Assembly: GCF_037042905.1 (NCBI RefSeq)
Contig: NC_087251.1
Span: 30,754,001 to 30,818,000, forward strand
Length of the DNA: 64,000 nucleotides
Source of the DNA: Lytechinus pictus
Taxonomy: Eukaryota
Reading direction: 5' to 3'
The position numbers were made by a program, and so were the translations under genes. Shown here one piece after another: positions 2,460 through 33,400 of the stretch. Position 1 is the first letter of the stretch; each line of letters starts with the position of its first letter. The notes beneath the pieces are model-generated. The model searched no databases, was not told the origin of the DNA, and worked only from the letters and a program-made list of their open reading frames with translations.

Positions 2460-3369
<910 letters not shown>

Positions 3370-3400
3370 TAGTATAGAAGTCACAACATTTGATTTTTGT

Positions 3401-3617
3401 ATACAATAACAAATATTGGGTAAAAGTGCTCCATGAGGGTAATTATTTGTCCAACCAAAATTGGGCATTATTTTGCCCATTCTAAAATTGCTGCTTATTT
3501 TTTAACCTTACTGGACAATATGCTTCCAGCATTGGGTAAAATGCTGCCCCAATTGGTTGGACGTATAATTACTTACCCTCGTGGCTAAAAATTTTACCAA
3601 ATATTTTATACATTGTA
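3401..3617. mobile_element. Small MITE with degenerate TIRs
   Basis: AAATATTGGGTAAAA near the left end versus TTTTACCAAATATTT near the right end. Confidence 0.55.
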
Positions 3618-4410
3618 ATAGTTATGATTCGCTTTGCTCGCCGGCATTTTTTTATATAGATTTTGCCCGATTCGCAATATCTGGACCTCTCAAAAATTTT
3701 GGCCTGCCGCTGTCGTCTCCGTACAAAGTCACCATTGGTATGGTCACTGTGTCATTATCATCTTTATTATCATTAAATATCTTAATCATCGTCATAATGC
3801 CGATGCATCAGCACTTTGAAACACGGATGACTATACAATCTGTTTGTTGATTAAATAAACTTGTTGAAATTCAAGAGTATGACAGTTTGGACATTGTACC
3901 TTTTCATCATTTTAATCCAATACGTCGGCTATATTTCCCGAAATATCTCAAATATACCCAATACTACTCGCGGTATATAATGGCGGGATGCAATAATTTT
4001 ATTTCTGCAACAAAATTTTTACCAAACAATTTGGTATCTAAATCCATTCTTTAATAAAAAAAAAATGTTCTTCGAGTACGACAGTATCTGATGTAGTAAT
4101 TAAAACAATTTCAAGTTTTCTGCATTACCCTTGATACCCGCCCTGCATGTGGATATAGGCCCACACAAGTTCTACTTTGGTAATGTTGTACCAACGGCCT
4201 CATCACTTAGTCATTTTTACTGTATAGTTTCGCAGTACATTTTCAAAAGGACATTTTATATTTCAAATTTCCGTCCTCGGCCATCCCCATATATTCTCCC
4301 TCTTTTTTTTCCTCGGCGAAGGGATTTTTTTTTTAATTTGCTGACAAGGATAAACCTCAAATGACTGAATGTTGTTTATGTCTTATTTTCATTTCCCAGT
4401 AGGTCCTACA

Positions 4411-13965: not shown

Positions 13966-14272
13966 GAAAAAAGAAGAAGAAGAAGGGGGAGAAGAAGAAG
14001 AAGAAGAAGGGGAAGAAGAAGGAGAAGAAGAAGAGGAAGAAGAAGGAGGAGGATAAGGATAAGGAGAAGGGGGAGGAGACTGTGAGGAGAAGGGGGTGGA
14101 GAAGAAGAAGAAGAAGAAGAAAGAGAAGAACAAGAAGTAGAAGAAGAAGGAGGAGAAGAAGGAAAAGAAGGAGAAGATGGAGGAGAAGGGGTGGAGAAAA
14201 AGAAGGAGGAGAAGGAGAAGAAGAAGAAGGAGGAGGATAGAAGGACAGGAAGGAGAAGGGAAGAAAAGAAAA
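13966..14272. repeat. Polypurine (GAA/GGA)n low-complexity tract
   Basis: Direct reading; source of the poly-R/K/S/L/F ORFs. Confidence 0.95.
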
Positions 14273-18920: not shown

Positions 18921-20116
18921 ACTTTATTTAATCTGTTACAGAACAATTATGTTTCCATTCTATTAAGACCATCCATATTCCTGTACATCTCGTATCAAGT
19001 ATCAAGCATTTCATTAATGAATGTACATGTATGACAGTCATTTTTCATTATTTATTTTAGTAGGCATTTTCACTTTTATGAAGGGTTACCGACTCACGCG
19101 CCATATGATACTCCCTCCTTCCACTTCTCTTTGTCTTGAGCTTCCCCCTTTTTATGTCTTTGATTGGGTCTCTGCTCGAAAGACCGCCTTGTCGAATAAC
19201 CACAGGGCTGATGACCGTAGGTCAATGCAAGCTTTCAACAGGCTACATGCAAATGTCCAACCAGACTTTTCATGAATAATTTATTTGAGAAAAATTAATA
19301 TTATGAGTATAAAAAGAGGAAGAGGAATCATGCACAATTCTATATCAGTTTGCCTAGATGAAGTCCTGTTTTCTAGCCTTTCACCTTCCTGAGTGACAGG
19401 GTCTGTTTCCTCATTTCCTTCAATATGAAGGTTAGGCCTATTTCACAAGTGGAGCTAATATTTGTGTTATAAATATAAGGGTACCATGAGTCCAGCATGA
19501 CTCACAGCATGAGAGTTGGAATCATTAGTTGGCATCTAACATGTAGAGAGGAAAGTTATTAGTGTATGAATTTTGTCCCATGATTATTCACAATGCAGAA
19601 CTCTAAAGCTGTGAATCCTATCCTCCCATGCATGCTTTCTGGTACAAATTTATGAAATATCAAACAAATAATGCACAGTTTTAGTGGCGATGCAGGACAT
19701 CTACAATTTCCTTTAATTGCAACATTGTGAATACCTGAGATCCCTGTTAATTATTTACCATCAAAATATAAAGAATGCACATGTACATCTTTGTTAGCGA
19801 TTTTCAGCATTTTGGTTTTTATACTTTGTGTATAAAGCATGATCATTCAAAATTTGTCTTTTTATTGCATGTTTATGAACATGATATGTACGTAACTTGG
19901 GCTTATGCGTTTAAAAGAAAAAAAAGAAAAACTTTGAGATTGTACTCCAAATTGACAATTTTTTTTCCCTTGGTCCTAGACTCATGCAATTTTCAGTTTT
20001 GACTTCAATACAAATAGGGGTAGTCTCGCGAAAAGTGTTTGGGATGCAAAGAGGGGTGCTTCATTGAGGCCAATTATCTGTTAAGTGTAATTAGTATTTT
20101 TCAGTTTGGTCATTTT

Positions 20117-20155
20117 GCCTCCGACGAAGATTCTGCTAGGATCGAAAGCTTAGGC
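20117..20155 (+). ncRNA. Minimal hammerhead-ribozyme-like motif (Penelope-type repeat end), U4C variant
   Basis: GCCT-CCGACGA-A-GATTCT-GCT-AGGATC-GAAAGCTT-AGGC: stem I GCCT/AGGC, stem II GATTCT/AGGATC, palindromic AGCT in place of stem III. Confidence 0.65.
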
Positions 20156-23100
20156 CCCTTTTCGACTTTCTAGTAAAATATGGGTTAAAATAGCAGAAAA
20201 TCTGCTTGAACACTGCTAATCAGGTCAAATTCTGAGTTGCAGAGTCATCATAGTCATGTAAATTGACAGCACCGGTTGAGTATACTGGTACTGTGTTTTA
20301 AGCCTAAATTTCATATTTCACAATGATCAGGGAACATGAATGAATAATGTCAGAACTTAAAAACATAAAATTTTTATCTATAATTATACTTTATTTTTTT
20401 TTTTTTTTACTTTCTTATTGCCTGTTGCAACTACTCATGCAGTCATCAAGATTTCATCTCTGATTAATTAAAAAAAAATTGATTCGTTTCTCTGTCTTTC
20501 TCTCTCCTGGGAAAGGGGGGGGGGGTGTCTTTTAATACCCTTTCACTTTACAATGTATAAAGTGCATGCATTGCCCTATCATGAAAAAAAAATCCCTTAT
20601 TATAGTGCGTGTGTTTTTCTACTATGGCACCCACCTTGTTATGGCAGTGGCTCTTGAACTCTCTCTCTCTCTTTCTCTCTTTCATTCACTGAACGTAGTT
20701 TAACACTTGTAGAGTATGTGTCGCTCAATAACATGAAAGTCTGTCATATGCTTTGAATATTATCAACATGGTAGAGTGGAGGTTTCCTTTCAAATTTTGA
20801 GTGTTTTCCTAAGAAAATTAGTTTTTCATGTATTTAACCCGAGATTTCTGACAATGGCTCAGATCCTACTGGTTTCCTGATGTAGTCAGCTTTGTTGTAC
20901 AATGGTTAGCTTTGACCCCCAGAGGTCATGGTGGATAATACAACCTTTTTTTTTCTCTCTCTCCTTGGTAGCATGAAAATAGAAAGGAAATAGTCATCTG
21001 CACGTGATTATGCATTATACTACATTTAGTGTATCCTGTGCACAGATTGTTACTGGTTTCATGTGTCATTGATTAAAATAATGTTGGATTTTATTGCTGT
21101 GCTAATTACAAGTACACTGTATCATGAAGCTAGTGTAGTACATACATGCAGGTAAACTGCCTACCGGTAAGTCACCACAGATATGTGCTTGACTGACTTG
21201 AAACTTTTATAGAACACATGTTTTGCATGGTCTGATAATTCTTGTCTCAAAAATTGCTTTGATTTGGGCAAATATTTGACTTGGTACAATGGCATTTCAT
21301 TACATGTAGGCCTATACTTGCATTATAGGGCCTATATCTGTAACAAAGAAATAGTGAAATACATATAGAGTAATAAGTGAAGAATATAAAAGCAGTACCC
21401 CCCCCCCCTTATCACTTTAATATCAAGATGATTTTCGAAACTCTAGGAATAGGGTGTACTTGTACATGTTATAAATCTAGAACTAAGATGTCAAGATGCA
21501 AATTTGTAAACAGTGAATTTTATACTGTGTGCTTTAATAGCTGCAGGCAAAAGATTTAAAATGAAAAAAATATATATGTACAGGTATGGAATACTGCTTG
21601 AAAATTTTTCTTTTCCCCAAAGATGAATTTTATGATATTTTTAAAAGCCTTTTTTCCATCAAAAAAAAAAAAAAAAATTCTGAACCATGATGTAGAGGAT
21701 TCATTGTCCTAATTCTGTTGACAGTATATATGCCTCTTGACAAAGTTTGTTGTGACTTTTGTGAATAGAAATCTGCATGTTTATCAGTACATATTACCAA
21801 TCTATATGTACATGTATTTTTTGTTATATCATTCCTTGTTTGGAGATGAAATGTTCTTGTCTTTTTCAATGACCTTGAAAAGTCAAAGCAGATCGAACTG
21901 TTTTATCTGATTATAATAAATATTTACTCATTGACTGGATGTTTATCTGTGACTTTGGAGTAGGCTTCTCCGTGACGTGTAGCTATCTCATCATTTTCTA
22001 TTGTACATGTAAAGTGCCTTTTTTGTGACTGTAACCCTGGCCTTATGCCAGTTATTCATGATGTTGAATGCAATTGAATGTGTTGAGTAGGTTATGTGCC
22101 AGGCAGCTGATAACCTAAACTAGCAAATTAGCTACATTGTATGTATACTAGAAAAAGCAGTACCGGTATGTATTCTTCCACAAATTCATTGTATGAGCTA
22201 CAATATACAGTTGTATAAGGTGTCAAGAACATAATTCTTAAAGTAATGTTCTGGCAATATAAGTGTTTGCGGAATAAGATCATTAAAAGACACAATTGAA
22301 AAAACTATGTATACTCCATGATTGGGTATTACGTTCTACATGAAGACATGTACATAAGGGGTGTCACCATCCTACATATAAAGCTATTCTCACCTTTTGC
22401 AATAATATTGTGATACATGATGTATATAATACAAGTACATACATGTTTTAAAACACGTGTACATCAAGTGAGGTCAATCCATACATGTATGTAGCTTTAT
22501 GAATTGTATTCCAGTCTTTCCAGAATATGCAGACTTCCTTTTGATTTTCGATGTAAAGCAAAAAATGTACACTTGTATTCATAGCCTATGATATAGGCAG
22601 ATGCTGCAGAGCAGCCTCCGTTTATATAGTTAATTATACCCTCCTTATTGTTTGTTTTCTTTTAATCAACTTCATGTACTGTATGATGCAGTGCAGATTT
22701 TTTTGTTCTAAAGACTGCCATGTTGTTTCATGAAGACTTCATTCAAATTTCAAGTTCAAGACATTGAGAATGATGAACATAATGCCATTTACATGTATAT
22801 CTATGCCAACGTTACCCAGGTACAATTTGAACTTTGAAGTTACCATAATGGTGTCAGATTGGAATCAAATTCTCGATGTCTGAGGTCTTTGAATTTGAAA
22901 ACTTACTGTTCTTAACTTTATATATGCCTTTATTCCAAACCAATATTTCTGTTGCTTGAATAGTGTTTTATCCCACAATGTGTTCCCAGCAGTATAACAC
23001 AAAAAATAAATGGACAGTTTTGAAGCATGAAGCATTGTACTTGTGCTTGTTTCTTTTTAGAAACAACAGTGATGTTAATAATTCTGTTGTAAACTTTTAA

Positions 23101-23347
23101 AAACCCACATTTTATTCATTTTCTTTTTTAAAGAACAAATGAGGAATTATATTTTAATTCTTATAGTTCCAAACTCACATTTTACTGTTTTTCCATTGTT
23201 GGCTTTTTTTTTGTAGAACCCAAAATTATGTTTTATTTCGAATTATCCTTTATTATTTTGTAGTTCTAAACTCAGAGAACTAACAAGGAATTACATAGTA
23301 TGTTGTAAAATTCTTTTATATTTTGTGTCTTTTATTATGATTTTCAG

Positions 23348-23475
23348 TTGGGAGGTCTACGTGTCAGAAATTTATCTGTGTGTGTATAACCTTTGACCTG
23401 ATGCACTGAGAGTAGCAGTAAAGTGATAAATCTAACCAAAGAATTTTGTAAAGGAGCCGTGTTCATCAATGTGAG
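23348..23475 (+). other. Candidate 5' UTR exon of the nuclear receptor
   Basis: Long T-rich tract ending TTTTCAG at 23347; donor GAG|GTAAGT at 23476. Confidence 0.55.
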
Positions 23476-23687
23476 GTAAGTTCGTCTATCAATGCATTAA
23501 GATAGGGGCTGATGGGCATATTGCACTTTTGTATTAAGAGTGTACAAGATTTTTTTTTGGGGGGGGGCATTTTGATTTTTCTCGTGTTCATTATCTTAAA
23601 AACATATACAACAAATTCAACCTACTGTAGTGTGATTGGGATATAGTCTGCCAGCACAGAGAAGGGAAAAGCTTGCAATATATACCT

Positions 23688-24220
23688 GAGGATGTGTTCA
23701 ATGTCGGTTTCCAAATTTAAAACAGCAACATGAAACGTGATTGAAAACGTGATTAAAAAACGCGGATATAATGAGAAACGAAGGTTGTGTTCAATGTCCT
23801 CCATTCCCGGCCGTCAAAGTAAATCTCTTTCAAATCATGATTCTGAGGAAAATTTAAACGTCAAAAAAGATGCGGTTGTAAACGTGATTAGCTCAAATTT
23901 TACGACCTTGAGCATCGAGAATGTGACGTTGAACACGATTGAGTTTTTAAACATCTTTAAATTTGCTCTCGCAGTGGAAGCCTACACAAACAGGTGCCAG
24001 AACTGACCTTTCTTGTGATGGGTCAAAGTGCGCAAGTGCGCACTAAAGCTGCGCTAATGAAAGTGGGAAATTTAAAGACGATCAACATATAAACGCCTTT
24101 ATATTTTCGACACTGAACGGTGCACCGCTGATTGTGTTTGCGTTCGGTATTTTGTAATTGAGTTTTCAATCATGATTCATGTTGCTGTTTAAATTTGAAA
24201 ATCGACATTGAACACACCCC
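23688..24220. mobile_element. Harbinger-like TIR element
   Basis: GTGTTCAATGTCGGTTT versus AAATCGACATTGAACAC. Confidence 0.7.
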
Positions 24221-24714
24221 TAGTCTGCTCACATCTACCTGAGGGTGCCCAGATTTACCTTGCCCTCACAGAGGCCACCCTCATCCATTCCCTCCATTTT
24301 GCTCGATTCATTGCATCCTGCTCCCTCATCCCAACCCTCCTACACTTGCTTCTTCCATGTCTGGTTCGCTCATCTCCCCCCTTCCACTCTGACCACACAG
24401 GTCTATCAATTAGTGATGATCACATATCCTGGGGCCTAACTGTGAGTGGAAGATGTCAACTTAAGATGACATAACATGAGGGAGGAAATTCTTTTCATAC
24501 AGTGCTTTACCTTCAAATTGATAGTACAAGTGGTTGATCTAGCCGGATTAGAAACAGTACTTTGAAAGATCAATCCATTGTGCATGAATGCTGACTGTGA
24601 AATAGATATTGTACCTATTACTACAGCCGCCACTTGGTTGAACTACATTTCTACTTTGATGGAATAATGTTCCTCTTGATCTTACCTGTGATCTAGTTGT
24701 CAACCGGTGTGAAG

Positions 24715-24861
24715 ATGGAGGCCCCCCAGGGAGTGCTTAATGATAAGACTGTGACATTTGTCCAGGTACTCACAGTATCTGATATGGCGGAGGCGGCAGC
24801 CTTAGTAGCCTCGGAGATGAACCAGAACTCCTCTATTGCCAATCCGATCATGCAGATCGTG
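24715..24861 (+). CDS. Nuclear receptor coding exon 1 (A/B region)
   Basis: Acceptor TAG at 24696, AAGATGG start context, donor GTG|GTGAGT phase 0 matching the next exon. Confidence 0.75.
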
Positions 24862-27800
24862 GTGAGTAAACATACATGCTTGATTTCAGCTCCTACTGTG
24901 GTGTTGGTATTCATAGCAAAACACAAGATGATGAACAGGGGGTGGTTTCGAAAAGATTGTAGTCGGACTAAGAATCGCTTTTAAATTCCCAGTTGCTTGT
25001 GGCATATAAGCCCACTACCGCATTGGTCAGATCATGCCAATTGGGCATGTGGTAATCAACAACGAAATCGTGTGTAAATTTTTATGGGTATTTTGGCACT
25101 TAAGCATGATTTTTTCGTCGGTCAAACTTTGTGAAACTCCCCCATGGACATTGGCTAGAAAAACTTAATATATTACTAAAAGCTCAACGCAGAGTGATTT
25201 TAATTGTAATGCTAGTTTCACTTCAAGTTCGATGTTGTGGCTGATGAAATTTGCCCCAACAGCAACACTCAACACCATATGTGATACCACCAGTGACGAT
25301 CTTGAGATGTTGGTAAAGGCTAGGGTTAACATTGTTATTCTAACTTAAATGTTAAGTCTACCCTAACAACAAGATTTAAGGAAAAAATATATATATAATG
25401 AACATAACTGAAAATTTCATAAATATCAGATCCAAAATAAGAAAAAGATAAAATTTGACATTGTAATTTTTTGCCAAGTTTTACAACACTTGTGATAAAA
25501 TTGAAATATCTGATATTTCATAACATAAAATGCAAAACAAATAGTCAATGACACCACACACTGACTATTTGTTTTGCATTTTTATATTTTGATTTTTGTA
25601 GAATTGACAATAAATAAGCTTCTGGGCGAATCATAATAAATTACAACATTGGCAATTTTACATGTTCATGCACCATTCAAACAGTATATGTCACAATTCA
25701 CTTTAATACAAAAATAGTGACTGTGAAATCATTGGCTCCCTCATTTGCGTTTTGTCTTTGTTGTGTATATCACTGTTTTTTTTATTAAGTTAAACTGCAA
25801 AATGTCATAATTTTTTTTTATAGGATTTGATGATTTGAAGAAAATCAATTGTTTTGTTGGGGTGGACTCAGCCTTTAAACTGTCATATCTTGCTCTTATT
25901 ATCGGTAGCTAAATGTGACAACTCTGTCTATGTTGCTTGATTTACTGGACTTTAGTCTTTTACTCAGTCATACAATTTCTCTTTCAATACACAATCAATA
26001 AAATTAGGTTATTACATGTGCCTCAGACTTCTGCCTACGACATTGATATGATTGACTGTAGATCTAGAAGAATTTGTTTTTAAGTATTCAAAGAAAAGAA
26101 AGTATGGTTTGTAGTGACAAGAAATCAAATTACATTACACTTTAATGGATATCCAAACTTAGCTATGTCAGCACTCTAGAATTCTGATGACCGATTCAAT
26201 CAGATTCTGGTATTATCTCATTCCAGTGATTGATGTACAAATTTGTCAGCAGAACAACTAATGTTCTCTGATCCTAAAGCTGTTCGTGTTACATGCTGTT
26301 ATTTGCGATTTCCCATGATATTGACATTTAAACCTCAAATTCATTGTTGGTTGATTTCTGTGTTTACTACATGTAGGTGCAAACACCGGATTCTGCTGCT
26401 GCTCTTGCTGGTGAAGAAAGAGTAGTAATTTCTTCACATGACCCCTCTGCCACACCTAATATTGAAACCATTACAATGGCAACATCTGAAAGCCCGGCAG
26501 ATCTGAAGGCCAATGTGATCCCAAGCAACAGCACAACAGCCACACCACCCAACGCCTCATCGGGTGAAGAAAGGCTCTGCTTGATCTGCGGTGATAAGGC
26601 TAATGGCGTACACTACAATGTACTATCTTGTGAAGGTTGCAAGAGCTTCTTCCTACGTAGCAACAGATCAGGAGCCACGTTCACATGTGCTTCAGGAGGC
26701 AACTGCAACATGGATTTGTACACAAGACGACACTGTCCTGCCTGTAGGATGAAGCGTTGCTTAGAGTGCGGCATGAAGGTGGAAAGTGAGTGACATTAAG
26801 ATATTTACAAATATTCTAGGAGGGCCACAATGGTAGCAAATAAAATTACACCTGAGAAATTATATCATTAGGAGATGAGTTTGTATAAGTCCAAAAAAAG
26901 AAAGGGAAATCCAACTCTGCTTTGTTCCAGTTTCCTTTTTTCTTTTTTGGTTTATAAGTTACCCAATCAATAGCTTTGTCATTAAATTCAGATCAAAATT
27001 TTGCAGGTACACTACCTAAATGTCATACTTATTATAATAGATTAACTTAATATAATGTTTGAGAAAAATCAACTGTACTTCTATGAATTTAAATAAAAAC
27101 TGTATTCAAACTTTAAATGATTCATGATGAAGCAGTTAATCACAGGGAGTGTGGCATTACATCTGTCTCTTTTTTTTTTGTCTGATAGGAGTCTGGGACA
27201 AAGGTCGCCTGAAAACGAGAAAACCTCTCATACGAGTGAAGCGAAAGAAGAAGGTGCCGGGCATACACGCAGATTCAGCGACCTCTCCCACGGTTGCTCC
27301 TCCCACTCCAGGTGCCCCTCCCACTCCAGCACCGGCAGCAGCTCCACCCAACCCAGCATCATCTTCCATCCTACCCCAGCAGTTACCAATTGAAACTTCT
27401 CTGAGTTCGACCCCTTCAAGCTCACGCTCCAGCAGTCCTTCAGCCTATAGGTCTTCATTAACAGTCACCCCCAACATGTCCACCAACCCCATCCCTTCAG
27501 CTGTTCAGATGGACAAAGATATGCTACCATTTTCAGACCCTTCCCAGCAAATGGCCGGTGACAGTGGGATGTTGACGATCGATTTGGACACTCCGGGAAC
27601 ATCCACACAGACGCTGCTGACCTTTGGTTCAACGTATCCTCAGCTTACTCTGGCGCAGGAACAACTGATGATCACATTGGAAAAAGGATATAATGCTTCA
27701 ACGGAAGTCCTCAAGCATTTATCAGTAAGGAATATTTGTTCATAACATTCTTCTTAAAATTCTGAAGAATAAGTGTCACGTTGGAAATTGTATACCTTAC

Positions 27801-30459
27801 CTAACCACTGTTCTTTCTCTTTAAAGAGGTTGGATGTCATGGTTTTCCATTTTTCTCTGTCCAGTGCTATCTCACAGCATTCATTTATATTTCTGCTTGT
27901 CATCTCAATATTTCCAAGCCAGCTTTTCCTTTTACGTTCCCTTCCTCTTCTGCCTTCAATTTTTTCCTCCATGATTTTTATTTGCAAAGATTGGTGTCTT
28001 CTGGTATGGCCATAGTATGAGAGTTTATGTTCATTTATTGATATTAATAGTTCCTACTGTGTGAGATCCATTAGTTTCAGGACATCATCATTTGATTTCC
28101 TTTCTTTTCAGAATATATGGCACATTCTGCGATAGAACCACATTCGAAGACCTCTATTTTCTTTTCCTTCGATGAGTTTAATGTCTATGTATTATATAAT
28201 TCATCAGAAAAAAATGCAACATATTGTTTATATTTTACATGTTGTTTCAGTATGACATTGCATCAATAATTCTCAAGTCAATATCCAGTTGGATAGATTC
28301 TTGAATTTGAACTTATTTATAGAGCAAAATCAAATTGATTCTCTCATTTTGGAAATAATGAGATTAGAATTGACAGAACATCAGTGTTGATTCCTTATTT
28401 ATTTTTTTCATTTATGCAGAAAGATGTTCCTTTATTCAGAATGACACATTGGAGTAAATTCAAAGGAGGAGAAAGTGAGAGTCCCATCATTTCACAAGGA
28501 GAAGAGGAGGAAGATATGGACCAATCTAAACCAAAGAAAGCCAGATTAGATGCACAAGAGTCAAATACTAACACAAACTCTGCTCAGCAACAGCCTGCAG
28601 CCCAAGCTAATGGAAGAAACGGTGTTGCTACACCATTAAACAATGATCCCTTGGCTGTTCTCTCCTCAGCCACTGGGCAGAACATTGAAGTGATTTATAA
28701 CTTAACTTCCTTAGCTACCGGTGGGCAGATCAAAGACCCTGCATCGGCGTTGAGCGTGTTAGCATCATCGGAGCAAGGTTTGAGGGTGATTGAATCGATT
28801 GGATCCCTTGTGCAGGGACAGGATCTCAACACATTGATCAGTCTGGCTAAACTTGTGGGCCAGATAATCGGCATGGGAGGAGGCTCCCTTAACGATAATC
28901 TTGCAGACACGATTCTTGGGAGCATCACAGGCTCCATATTGAATAGCTCAAATGGAAATACAGCTTCATCGTTGAGTGCGGAGCTTGCTCTGAATATGCC
29001 TTCAGCATCTACTTCAATACCATCGGGTCCTAGTCAGGATCAGAATGGGAACAATGGAGGACAAGGTGTCACACAAGATGAAACAATGAACAATGCAGCT
29101 GTTGCTAAACTTGCCTCCAGCGGATTAGCAGAAGCATTGGCCATGTTAGCTGCCATGGCATCATCGAGTCAAAACAAAGAAACTATTGTAGAGATGGTGA
29201 AACGTGCAGCTGTCTCGTTGTTGAGAGGAGAGGACGAACCCCAAATGATGTCCTTTTCATCCCCACCGACATCATCCCCTGCCTCAAACAATTTCTATAT
29301 GCCAACTGATGTCGGCGAGGATGAAGTCAAGACCAGTCCATTCCTGCAGTCCCTCCAAAGAGTCACCTCATTTCTGACCAGCGGCAAGATGAGTTCAGGC
29401 AAAAAATCTTCCACCAAAGCCAAACGCACTGTCAACAAAGAAATGCTGCACATAGCCATGGACATGTTTGCCGTCCTGGTCAAGCAAACCATTCACTTTG
29501 CCAAAAGCATTCCTGGATTTACGAACCTCTCTTGCGACGACCAAGCCGTGCTCATCAAATCTAGCATCGTGGACGCACTGCTGTTAAGGTGCGCAGACTC
29601 TTATGCATTGGATAAAGATTGCTTGGTGAATGTTACCAATGGAGACAAGTTTGATGTGCATATGATGTATCAGTTGGGATTCTCAACCCTGCCAGAGGTA
29701 GTCTTTGAGTTCATGAGGGACACCAAAGCTTGTGGACTCACTACAGCAGAGTATGCACTTTTTACCGCAGCTGCCTTACTCTCGCCTGGTAAGTTGAGTC
29801 AGCTGCGCTCAAGTTTGTGTATAATAATCAAACAGAAGAGAGATATCTATATTTCTTTTGTTGATGGCATACATCCCTTACCAAGAAATCAAAGATCTCA
29901 ATAGTTCATTTGATATAAGTTGTGAAATATAAACCTCAGAATATTCAACTTTATGCATTCACATTGCTCTCATCTATATGAAGTATGGATATAATCAAAC
30001 TAAGTAATTAATAGGCATTTTATGGTCAAATATTTAAGATATTGCTGTATTTAGTGTTATATTAGATGTCTTTCAACTCATTTTATAACAAAAATCTTCT
30101 ATGAAGTTCAACCACAAGTACAAGTATAATGAAAAAAAAGTATATTTGTATTAACCATTATAAGAATGCTTGATATTATTATTATCAGTAATATTGTTTT
30201 ATTATTATCACTTTCAGATCGGTCTGACCTGAAGGACAGAAAGACGGTGGAGGAGATGCAGTTGGAGATGATCCTTGCTCTACAGGCAGCCACCAAGGTC
30301 TTCCATGCAGATAAACCTTTCCTTTTTACCAAACTCATCACCAAACTGACCACTCTTAGAGACATGTCCATCCTTCACCTCAGTGAGATCATGGCAGTCA
30401 AGGTCCAGGAACAAGATCTTAGTCCTCTTATTGTAGAACTGTTTGGGCTAGATTCGTGA
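24715..30459 (+). CDS. NR1-group (NR1H-like) nuclear hormone receptor, ~900 aa; join(24715-24861,26377-26785,27189-27724,28420-29788,30218-30459)
   Basis: Two C4 zinc fingers; LBD signature FAKSIPGFTNLSCDDQAVLIK; SPDR motif; AF-2 PLIVELF. All introns GT-AG with matching phases (0,1,0,1); 2703 nt including stop. The start exon is less certain than the rest. Confidence 0.92.
25346..25878. mobile_element. Degenerate TTAA-flanked (Kolobok-like) non-autonomous element
   Basis: TTAAATGTTAAGTCTACCC versus GGGTGGACTCAGCCTTTAA. Confidence 0.5.
26377..26785 (+). CDS. Nuclear receptor exon 2 (complete DNA-binding domain)
   Basis: CLICGD...CEGCKSFF...CASGGNC...CPACRMKRCLECGM; TAG|GTG acceptor, A|GTGAGT donor. 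Confidence 0.95.
27189..27724 (+). CDS. Nuclear receptor exon 3 (basic NLS-like stretch, Pro/Ser hinge, putative LBD helix 1)
   Basis: RVKRKKK; LTLAQEQLMITLEKGY; phase-consistent splice sites. Confidence 0.9.
27785..28190 (-). mobile_element. RTE-clade LINE 3' fragment in the receptor intron
   Basis: KIEGRRGRERKRKSW...ALDREKWK resembles the RTE ORF C-terminus. Confidence 0.75.
28420..29788 (+). CDS. Nuclear receptor exon 4 (long insertion plus LBD H3-H8)
   Basis: 1369-nt open exon; CAG|AAA acceptor, G|GTAAGT donor after LLSP. Confidence 0.93.
30218..30459 (+). CDS. Nuclear receptor last exon (H9-H12/AF-2)
   Basis: DRSDLKDR...FTKLITKLTTLR...LSPLIVELFGLDS*. Confidence 0.95.
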
Positions 30460-33400
30460 CAGAGTGATCACTCTCTTCCACCTTTATAGTCCAGATACAA
30501 GATCTTGAACCACTCATTGTAAATATAAATTTGGAATAGAATTGTATCACTGCTATAACCAAAGTACTAGACACATGAATCTTTCACCCCTATGGAATCG
30601 TTATGAGGTAATCCTCACAATATAAAATTCTGTCGTTGAGTTAAAACCTATATTTTAGTGTCCTTTCACTCTGTGCTCACTGCATAATGATGAAACAAAA
30701 ACACTGAATAAATAAAGTTATCTATATTAGCATGATTATTACTGTATGATACAGTAACACAAGATTGTTTTGCTTAATATTTTGCGGTTAGGACTTATCA
30801 TGCGAGACATCATGGGGGGAGGGGTGCTCCTAGCTCCCCCAGCCTTATTAGGGTTAAAACTCAGAACAACATTACCAACCAAGACCAATAATGTCATGAT
30901 ATTGGCAGAGATCTGTATCCCCTCCCCTCCCCATGGTTATAGTAATGTTCGTAGTCAAAAGTTAGATTAATGTATCAACTATTCTTGCTCAAAAGGTTTG
31001 TCCGCTTTGTGTTACTTATAGGTGATTTACAGATACCTGCTTAGCAGGTTAAGTGGTAATCTCACATCAGTTTACATAGACCTACAAATATAATGATATT
31101 AGTGAATTGATAACTTTAAAGATATTGACATTGACCATTTCATTATTCCATTTCCTTCCAAAGAAAATGGGGATGTAATGAAGGCATCTGAAGCCTTGCA
31201 ATTCAGAATTGGAATTTTATGGTTTTTGGGATGTTAAATGACTAAAAGTTTTTAAAATGTATGAAGTTATTAGTTAGATCATTGGACAATTCTGTTTGTG
31301 AGTTTTACTCTCATACATGTAGTTTAGTGAATTACAGCAATATGTTTGGTTTGATGTTGCTTTTATTTTACTTCTCATATATGTGGTTTTGGGGGATGCT
31401 AAAAATGGTTTAATAATAGGAATAAATCATTATTGGGACTGACTTGAAATGAAAATGAGAAATAGGTAGGAAATTCTGGGCCCTTTAACAGAAAGCTTAG
31501 CAATTAATGGATGTGTTGATATTGTGATTGATCTTGCACAATAATCAATTGATCAATCGTAGAAATCAGTCTCCTTATCGATAACTAAGTTTTATGTTAC
31601 AGCGCCCAGACCTTGTTTCATGCAATATATATTCATATCCAATGAGAATACTGTCAAATGCTCAAATGGAAAAATAACGGATGCTTAAACCTTGCTTACA
31701 TTTATGTATTGCTTGTTTCGGATATGAAGTATGATATTGGTGAAACAAGTTTAAATTCCTTTGATGGGAATGTGATGTGTGTGATTAAAGTGGGGAATTG
31801 TAATTTGAAAAGAGTGCAAACGTGAGCGAAACCAATGGTTTTAACACCTTAAAAATCTGTCATCTAGCTGTATTATTTACAAGTATGTTTTGTATTGATA
31901 TTTGTTTTTACATTTTGTTATATATTCTTCTTTTGATAAATAAAGTAGATAAGTGATTGAGACTTCTCTCTCTGGTTAGACCTGTCGTTATGAATTGTGT
32001 AGCATTCATACCTACTATACAGACCAGGTTTGAAGTATGGCTTTTAAAGGTTGAACTTGTGTTTTGCTGATCCCTGTCCAGAGAGTCATATTGAGTCAAA
32101 AATAATTGTGAGTCTGTGAGCAAAATGATTGGAAAATTGTGAGGGAATTTTCTATGCTACATATCCATAAATGAGCGTGCCTTGCCTGTGCGTGCTTGAA
32201 AGAACACCTAAATGTGTATCACGTCTGATGGCTCTTTTAAAGTCATATATCATAAAATCCTTGATTTACATTTCTCGAGGAATTCAAACTGAAATGTCAC
32301 CTTTCATAGCTCTATCCATATTGCCTCATTAGTAATATGTTGCCCCACCTACATTACTTATTTGATTGGTAGCTTGCTAAACTAATATATCATGAATTTC
32401 TTATTAGTCTGCAATATGGGCATTAAAGGTAACAGAAAAGTATAATTTCTGCTTGACAATATCTCTTGGTAAAACCTTTCTTCATATTTTCTTTTTATTA
32501 CGTTTGAACATATACTTACTTTTCCTTTCGAGGAATAGAGGACTGTATGAAGTCCATACCTTAATTTCTAGATGTCTTAAAGTCTTAGATTCATGTCTTG
32601 TGAAATTATGATTTTATTTGTTTGCAGTTAGTATCTTTTATGAAAAAGGTATATTATTGTTTTGAAAACATATACACTGAAATAACATGAGTAGCTTGCT
32701 TTATACACACACAGTGTGAGTCTGGTTTGGGAAGAGACAGTGTGTTGGTATGTACTTTTGTAACATTTGTAAATACTTCATAGATTATGCTATGTATATA
32801 CGACTATTGGAACATTATATATGAGGGTATAACCCTTGAATTCAGCCTACCAAATCTAGATTTCAGTTCATCATTGTATATTTATGATTACTTGCCAATA
32901 TTATAACTTTGGCATAATCTTACAGAATCATGTTGCTGTAATCTCTTCTGTTTCATTAGCATGTTGTGTGATGCAGTCTGCAATGAAAGATGCTGGATTT
33001 GGATTTCTTTTGTTTATTATTTTTCCTGCATGCCATCATCTATTAACATGAAAGTTGTGGATTTTAGGAGATAAAGGTCTGACTGAGAAAGAAGGGACTA
33101 TATAATGCAGGAATAACATCCTTGGCTATTAAGGATTGCACAACACTTGCATTTTGTAATAACTTCTTTTGTGGGAAGCCACCAAATCTCCATATTGCTT
33201 GTTTTATCTTGATTTTGTTTGTTGTGGTAGGTTTCTGTGTTGTTAAAAGTTATTTTCTTCTTCTTTACCATTATGATAAAGAGAGGGTGTGTAGGGACAA
33301 GTCTGTATTGCTTTTCTTTGCTTCACTCGTTTATTAGTTACATGCATGAACCTTTTTGCCACTTCTCACACCCATACCTGTAAAATCATATCTCCTTTTT

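Follow-up and report, generated by a model that had tools for sequence, protein, structure and literature searches.

An expanded, partly conserved helix 1–helix 3 loop in an NR1H-like nuclear receptor of Lytechinus pictus and other sea urchins

The loop between helix 1 and helix 3 (H1 and H3) of the nuclear-receptor ligand-binding domain (LBD) is usually regarded as a short, dispensable linker. A stretch of 64,000 nucleotides (nt) from the sea urchin Lytechinus pictus (assembly GCF_037042905.1, contig NC_087251.1, positions 30,754,001 to 30,818,000 of the forward strand; hereafter the window, with positions counted from its first letter) contains a nuclear-receptor gene in which a few hundred residues seem to be placed within this loop. 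The locus raises the question of whether this insert belongs to the mature receptor, whether it truly lies between helix 1 and H3, and what it may do there. The answer reached here is that the insert is a real, expressed and echinoid-wide expansion of the H1-H3 loop, carrying conserved modules.

The receptor gene is composed of six exons on the + strand, and all five of its introns are GT..AG:

23347..23475, + strand: exon of the 5′ untranslated region (UTR); contigs X1 and X15, joint 23473/5->24695/7, GT..AG
24697..24861, + strand: first coding exon, encoding residues 1-49 from the ATG at 24715; preceded by in-frame stops
26377..26785, + strand: exon with the entire zinc-finger DNA-binding domain (DBD); Pfam zf-C4 and transcript joints
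27189..27724, + strand: exon with the C-terminal extension of the DBD (RVWDKGRLKTRKPLIRVKRKKK), the Pro/Ser-rich hinge and the helix-1 block; transcript contigs
28420..29788, + strand: exon of 1369 nt with the post-H1 segment, the entire insert and H3-H8 (residues 365-820); transcript contigs
30218..30459, + strand: last coding exon with H9-H12 of the LBD, the activation function 2 (AF-2) core LIVELF and the stop codon at its end; transcript contigs

The transcript evidence comes from public runs aligned to positions 20000-31000, in which X1 provided a contig of 6582 nt (record 1) and X15 one of 6429 nt (record 4). The two belong to separate studies, with source runs marked 'RNA?'. Both contigs are spliced, at five identical joints, and are thus RNA-derived. 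Upstream of 23347, transcript contigs reach 43-92 nt further, with no placement within 20000-31000, and the 3′ UTR extends past 31000, beyond the stop at 30459. The spliced frame gives a protein of 900 amino acids (aa), identical to P0157, which is listed at NCBI as 'uncharacterized protein LOC129264575 [Lytechinus pictus]'.

The initial annotation, made from the sequence of the window, had placed a helix-1-like segment in a third exon and the insert together with H3 in a fourth, all in one open frame. Its exons correspond to 27189-27724 and 28420-29788, and the coordinates were correct. The frame of the 1369-nt exon is open over 456 codons, and EMLHIAMDMF... begins at its codon 341, corresponding to residue 705 (29440). 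It could be argued that the insert was annotated wrongly and that an internal intron takes it out of most mRNAs, given that contigs drop rare variants and that raw RNA reads are too few to reveal (minor) isoforms: in the raw runs X19 and X20, about 6% of each of which was scanned, depth on the receptor gene is near zero. However, both independent contigs span 28420-29787 without a gap or a joint, so the insert is not removed by an intron, and the length of the exon, which is not a multiple of three, means that the insert cannot be cleanly removed by exon skipping either. The 456 open codons and a protein-level conservation that is coding in type also speak against an artefact, which is scarcely conceivable. 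The H1-H3 loop is present in the mature mRNA.

The X1 contig differs from the window at seven coding positions, six of them synonymous. All five differences in exon 28420-29788 are of the synonymous kind, including the three that fall in the insert; the sole replacement, A341E, is found at a variable position of helix 1. Two further observations were made in the transcript alignments. At window position 27370 the X1 contig carries an in-frame insertion of 3 nt (CTA) in the Pro/Ser-rich hinge, that is, a length polymorphism. Within intron 1, the stretch 23670-24403 is repeat-like, with a contig depth of 258-819, numerous small odd joints and a majority of raw reads of the first-mate-on-minus kind; a transcribed repeat from another location is the probable explanation.

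The position of the insert relative to the LBD depends on which segment is helix 1. Three elements are involved:

27644..27691, + strand: LBD helix 1, LTLAQEQLMITLEKGY (residues 338-353); orthologue, NR1H and LXRbeta alignments
29335-29391, + strand: motif SPFLQSLQRVTSFLTSGKM (residues 670-688); found in asteroids, the ophiuroid and holothuroids, and not in crinoids or hemichordates
29440..29788, + strand: LBD H3-H8 (residues 705-820, including K726); Pfam Hormone_recep 707-882 and PDB matches

Orthologues were retrieved by an exhaustive HMMER search (179 proteins at E<=0.001) and a word-index search (234 at E<=1e-20). Their lengths differ widely, with 877-920 aa in sea urchins, 595-614 in starfish, 533 in the brittle star, about 500 in sea cucumbers, 471-523 in acorn worms and 372-400 in feather stars. 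Nevertheless, residues Q342, L345, L349, E350 and S356 are invariant across 18 ambulacrarian orthologues, whatever their distance to H3. These residues start in LTLAQEQLMITLEKGY, which ends 11 codons short of the end of exon 27189-27724. In an alignment of 38 sequences the motif matches 'LTPDQQNLL.YI.DSY' of FXR, as well as EcR and the amphioxus LXR-like receptor, column for column, the common helix-1 motif with LXR, FXR and EcR being L-T/S-x-x-Q-x-x-L. A profile of the same 38 sequences matches the solved LXRbeta chain 4nqa_B with high posterior from the DBD up to 'QLTAAQELMIQQLVAAQLQCNK', the LXRbeta segment established as helix 1. The helix-1 35-mer alone, searched against PDB, returned a single irrelevant match (E 1.1).

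The competing possibility is that the protein merely has a long hinge, in which LTLAQEQL... would be a hinge motif and the real helix 1 would be SPFLQSLQRVTSFL (residues 670-683), just before H3. The motif at 670-688 is indeed conserved (residues 647-700 show 85% identity between Lytechinus and Diadema), it stands about 20 residues ahead of H3, and the Pfam LBD model begins no earlier than residue 707. In the 18-sequence alignment SPFLQSLQRVTSFL is kept in echinoids, asteroids and the ophiuroid and more weakly in holothuroids. It was rejected as helix 1, being missing from the crinoid and hemichordate orthologues, in which LTxxQxxL is invariant and in which the same alignment offers no other helix candidate between that motif and H3. 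The Pfam boundary does not help the long hinge, since Hormone_recep covers 707-882 here and 294-465 of 482 in FXR, that is, from H3 on in both, and is uninformative on helix 1. Together with the alignment of LTxxQxxL to helix 1 of FXR, EcR, the LXR-like receptors and LXRbeta, this makes a long hinge highly unlikely. By these alignments, residues 338-353 form the genuine helix 1 of the LBD, with the additional sequence located between them and H3, as had first been proposed.

Pfam zf-C4 covers residues 116-183 (E 4.7e-23 on P0157 and 1.5e-24 on the exon translation), with all eight zinc-finger Cys invariant in the orthologue alignment, and Hormone_recep (PF00104) matches at E 2e-12. The charge-clamp lysine of H3, K726, is nearly invariant, and the AF-2 core LIVELF, which fits the pattern hydrophobic-hydrophobic-x-E-hydrophobic-hydrophobic, includes the invariant E894. 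PDB matches of the LBD are to Rev-erb, RAR, VDR and LXR (E 1e-12 to 1e-10). No domain besides zf-C4 and Hormone_recep was found when the exon translations were compared with Pfam (E<=1). As judged from these matches, the receptor retains an intact DBD, helix 1 and helices 3-12, along with an intact charge clamp and AF-2 core.

The description of the receptor as NR1H-like was borne out at the profile level, with LXRbeta as the best match among solved structures (4e-123), followed by LXRalpha, EcR and FXR at about 1e-73, and with the helix-1 motif common to NR1H. The phylogenetic tree was built with a quick maximum-likelihood search on 44 sequences of our own choice (356 of 1869 columns), with support values only from the Shimodaira–Hasegawa-like approximate likelihood ratio test (SH-aLRT). 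It contains a clade of 21 exclusively ambulacrarian rows (SH-aLRT 99), divided into two paralogue groups. This clade is placed in a polytomy with NR1H (FXR, LXR-like, EcR) and NR1I (PXR, CAR) and is not nested in NR1H. The branching inside the receptor's own group agrees with the species tree. On this phylogeny the Lytechinus protein is orthologous to an orphan nuclear receptor, whose clade is limited to echinoderms and hemichordates and is related to NR1H and NR1I. For Strongylocentrotus purpuratus, three to four NR1H genes and no NR1I are given in two papers (PMC4245547, PMC3292500), and the function of nr1h6b and nr1h6c is called 'not clearly defined' in a third (PMC9557091).

The P-box is CEGCKSFF in all 18 orthologues and CEGCKGFF in the solved chains of LXRbeta, PPARgamma and RAR; the receptor thus reads EGCKS and not the EGCKG of the LXRbeta type. 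An unusual P-box characterises the ambulacrarian clade as a whole, the paralogue group having CESCKSFF where the group of this receptor has CEGCKSFF. The clade also shares a strongly conserved post-DBD extension, (E/D)(R/K)VW..(x)RL.(T/K)RK. The clade-wide P-box and extension hint at a distinct DNA-site preference.

With helix 1 fixed, loop length could be measured in the 38-sequence alignment, counting the residues that separate the helix-1 glutamine from the beginning of H3:

FXR: 33
EcR and LXR-like: 38-43
crinoids: 61-76
holothuroids: 121-124
second ambulacrarian paralogue group: 140-172
hemichordates: 142-160
ophiuroid: 144
asteroids: 187-189
six echinoid proteins: 362-372

These values indicate that long H1-H3 loops are a trait of the entire ambulacrarian clade, with the echinoids as the extreme.

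The initial annotation had suggested that a domain was grafted onto the LBD, and this part of it did not hold. No donor was found among the scored proteins or elsewhere in the genome: the insert is matched by the six echinoid proteins only among 7999 scored candidates of similar length, with no match among 5031 shorter ones, and the 812-Mb genome contains a single copy of it. In the exhaustive HMMER search P0001 alone spans the whole insert, while P0002 and P0003 cover part of it. Comparison of urchin with starfish proteins by BLASTP gave nothing significant inside the loop. A paralogue located 2.7 Mb away shares this exon arrangement: an intron directly follows the helix-1 block, and a single exon, whose end falls at the same '...SP|' site, encodes the linker together with H3-H8. 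The absence of a donor, the single copy and the same-exon layout in the paralogue lead to the conclusion that the insert grew in place inside its exon, the loop lengthening across related lineages. As far as these comparisons go, the loop reached its length of about 350 residues in sea urchins from a start of a few tens, within one exon and with no contribution of donor sequence.

Repeats at the DNA level within the insert are limited to two chance-like pairs of 16-17 nt, so any internal duplication must be old. Internal repeats at the protein level are weak (2 of 28 segment pairs with z>2.5; hhalign probabilities <=5%). The paralogue belongs to the second ambulacrarian NR1H-like group and lies on the minus strand of locus L002 (G000:C7:33470000-33479999), at 3091-4023 and 2585-2863. 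The orthologue in S. purpuratus bears the name 'oxysterols receptor LXR-beta', and the paralogue's linker of about 160 residues is fairly conserved between S. purpuratus and Diadema.

The insert itself is composed of the following parts:

28486..28647, + strand: spacer 1 (residues 387-440), with an acidic run, KPKKARL and Q/N-rich low complexity; 30% identity to Diadema
28528-28548, + strand: KPKKARL (401-407), resembling a nuclear localization signal; sequence
28648..28950, + strand: conserved block A (441-541), Leu/Ser/Gly/Ile-rich, with amphipathic motifs; conservation and FoldIndex
28834..28869, + strand: LISLAKLVGQII (503-514), a corepressor-motif-like helix candidate; likeness to NCoR ID1
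28951..29097, + strand: spacer 2 (542-590), N/S/G/Q-rich; 32% identity to Diadema
29098..29265, + strand: conserved block B (591-646), Ala/Leu/Met-rich, with a helix-turn-helix-like pattern LAEALAMLAAMASSSQNKETIVEMVKRAAVSLL; 96% identity to Diadema
29266..29439, + strand: pre-H3 segment (647-704), with a Ser/Pro run, the conserved acidic NFYMPTDVGEDEV, the motif SPFLQSLQRVTSFLTSGKM and a basic run; 85% to Diadema

All the blocks named in the initial annotation are present, as is KPKKARL, which is partly kept in other urchins as KPKKAKV, EPKIAKL and DPKKMKL. Its view that the insert is not merely of low complexity also stands, given that blocks A and B are hydrophobic and 79% and 96% identical between Lytechinus and Diadema. 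For the same pair, identity reaches 92% in the DBD, 97% in H3-H12 and 78% in the helix-1 block, and it drops to 37% in the N-terminus, 43% in the hinge, 30% in residues 387-440 and 32% in 542-590. Block A is 94% identical to that of S. purpuratus. Among four divergent echinoids, a count that omits two sequences near-identical to that of the window, 196 of the 340 insert columns are invariant; within block B, 42 of the 47 columns of residues 598-644 are invariant.

Base and residue composition follow the same division. FoldIndex, like the hydrophobic moment a crude composition measure, is +0.35 for block A, +0.29 for block B and +0.28 for the LBD core, with -0.28 for spacer 1 and -0.09 for spacer 2. 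The GC content of third codon positions is 0.53 in block A, 0.43 in block B and 0.55 in the LBD, with 0.28 in residues 365-440 and 0.29 in spacer 2. Block A includes a weak tandem repeat, 441-470 / 471-500 (z 4.4, reached by none of 500 shuffles; hhalign P just 0.017). In conclusion, sequence comparison describes the insert as a beads-on-a-string mosaic, in which AT-rich, fast-evolving and disorder-like spacers alternate with two slow hydrophobic blocks and the pre-H3 motif, and parts of it are, by alignment, as well conserved among sea urchins as the LBD itself.

One may ask whether such a loop is simply functionless, a tolerated growth of disordered sequence comparable to the poorly conserved VDR insertion. 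The spacers 387-440 and 542-590, which evolve fast, resemble disordered sequence and are AT-rich at third codon positions, would fit this, as would the wide variation of loop length between lineages. It is contradicted by the 79-96% identity of blocks A, B and the pre-H3 segment against 30-43% in the spacers and hinge, and by the three insert polymorphisms, all synonymous, so that a functionless loop is very unlikely. Since the insert is transcribed and parts of it, under strong constraint, are conserved like the LBD, it probably has a function so far undescribed.

What this function could be is suggested by the geometry of the domain. Both flanking helices, helix 1 and H3, are part of the folded LBD, and helix 1 must still pack on its core; the roughly 350 residues between them would therefore form an excursion that loops out as a whole from the LBD surface. 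The conserved blocks are probably helix-prone binding modules, kept near the LBD by flexible tethers. Their most likely role would be to create or gate contact with another protein (a co-regulator or dimer partner) or with the co-regulator groove of the receptor itself, and such a contact would modulate transcriptional output and not DNA binding. That the expanded loop holds tethered protein-binding modules of this kind is a reading to which we assign a moderate probability.

The blocks could also fold into an extra autonomous helical domain, which would pack on the LBD and alter ligand access, as was first proposed. They have LBD-like hydrophobicity and near-LBD conservation, block B has a helix-loop-helix pattern, and a weak similarity exists between blocks A and B (hhalign P 0.0074). 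Searched as a whole against PDB, the insert gave two matches at E ~6, which are not significant; the look-alikes of block B are designed helical repeats only. On the other hand, a fast-evolving spacer of 49 residues parts the blocks, block A has a glycine every 8-10 residues, and no relative was found in the Pfam, PDB or Atlas searches (block A 41-mer against PDB, no match at E<=10; residues 436-650 against the ESM Atlas, best score 0.76, below the lead threshold). Such a domain is possible, if rather unlikely.

A more specific form of contact was considered for LISLAKLVGQII (503-514), which has 7 of its 12 residues in common with part of the NCoR ID1 peptide, as printed in PMC7840129 (7, 7 and 6 of 12 in other urchins). 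In 20000 shuffles of the insert this score was reached three times, a significance that is overstated because the segment was picked after the match had been seen. The PDB search with the block A 41-mer did not return the NCoR ID1 peptide. With the consensus of the corepressor nuclear-receptor (CoRNR) box from the same source, I/L-x-x-I/L-I/L-x-x-x-I/L/F, the only strict match in the protein is LSPLIVELF at 888, in helix 12; LAKLVGQII at 506 fits if Val is allowed. It might be that LISLAKLVGQII, on the tether formed by the disorder-like spacers, acts as a built-in corepressor mimic, docking in the receptor's own AF-2 groove and holding the receptor silent until the helix is displaced by a ligand or partner. 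This is speculative and we consider it improbable; if true, the receptor would contain an intramolecular switch for which nuclear receptors offer no described example.

Several points weigh against tethered modules in an expanded loop and should be taken together. No LxxLL occurs in the 900-aa protein, and the strict CoRNR consensus is unmatched in the insert. The fold-like character of the blocks comes from the composition measures mentioned above. The evidence for expression consists of low-depth transcript contigs, the raw runs X19 and X20 being near-empty here. The insert is carried by six sequences only, three of which are from one genus. Stepwise growth of the loop relies on lengths and weak motif matches, the urchin-starfish comparison being null within it, and the family placement on a quick tree with SH-aLRT as its only support and self-chosen sequences.

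Other features of the window lie apart from the coding exons. A 103/203-bp satellite at 5-707 is followed directly by about 30 TAACCC copies (709-891), an interstitial telomere-like repeat well inside the 49.7-Mb contig. An (AAG)n array of about 100 copies occupies 13971-14270. A 64-bp element at 20109-20172 is covered at very high depth by each of the four runs (word depth 4900-8600; about 46 and 30 raw reads); its reads continue into unlike sequence on both sides, and it is thus a short dispersed repeat. Rfam and tRNA scans of the window, this element included, found nothing.

The expanded loop matters beyond this locus. It offers a natural test case of how new regulatory modules may arise in a folded domain through in-place growth of a loop, and it points to an unstudied control layer in the echinoderm NR1H-like receptors. 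These receptors have been proposed to sense xenobiotics or sterols as part of the sea-urchin 'chemical defensome' (PMC9557091). There is also a practical side, as GAL4-LBD constructs or homology models that begin at H3, or that trim 'the hinge', would split this LBD. A literature search found the insert undescribed within its reach, outside of which lay subscription papers such as the 2006 sea-urchin genome companions.

One close counterpart stands in the sea-urchin NR1H family itself: the same insert is found in LOC577786 of S. purpuratus, whose product P0158 (909 aa) is the orthologous receptor. With LXR, FXR and EcR the receptor has the helix-1 motif in common, at an H1-H3 distance there of 33-43 residues. 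PXR (NR1I2) has an addition of tens of residues between H1 and H3, which is part of the folded LBD and shapes the ligand pocket; the urchin insert resembles it in position, although that of PXR is only tens of residues long.

The known H1-H3 insertions of VDR and USP span 11-50 residues (PMC7641746, PMC3520820). For the schistosome receptors, helices 1-2 are called divergent, and the two reports describe no defined insert (PMC2045677, PMC1810520). In USP (NR2B4) of Mecopterida, the L1-3 insertion has 11 residues and locks helix 12 in an antagonist-like position, as seen in crystal structures (PMC3520820). Similarly to L1-3, the urchin insert is a lineage-specific H1-H3 loop insertion that became constrained; unlike L1-3, whose action was read from crystals, it is far longer, and any contact of its blocks with the LBD is putative. 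The insertion of VDR (NR1I1) is also flexible, placed between H1 and H3 and restricted to a single receptor lineage. It is described as a disordered and poorly conserved segment of about 50 residues, involved in contact with MED1 and carrying regulatory phosphorylation sites (PMC7641746). In contrast, the urchin loop has about 350 residues, with blocks conserved at 79-96% across sea urchins and of fold-like composition.

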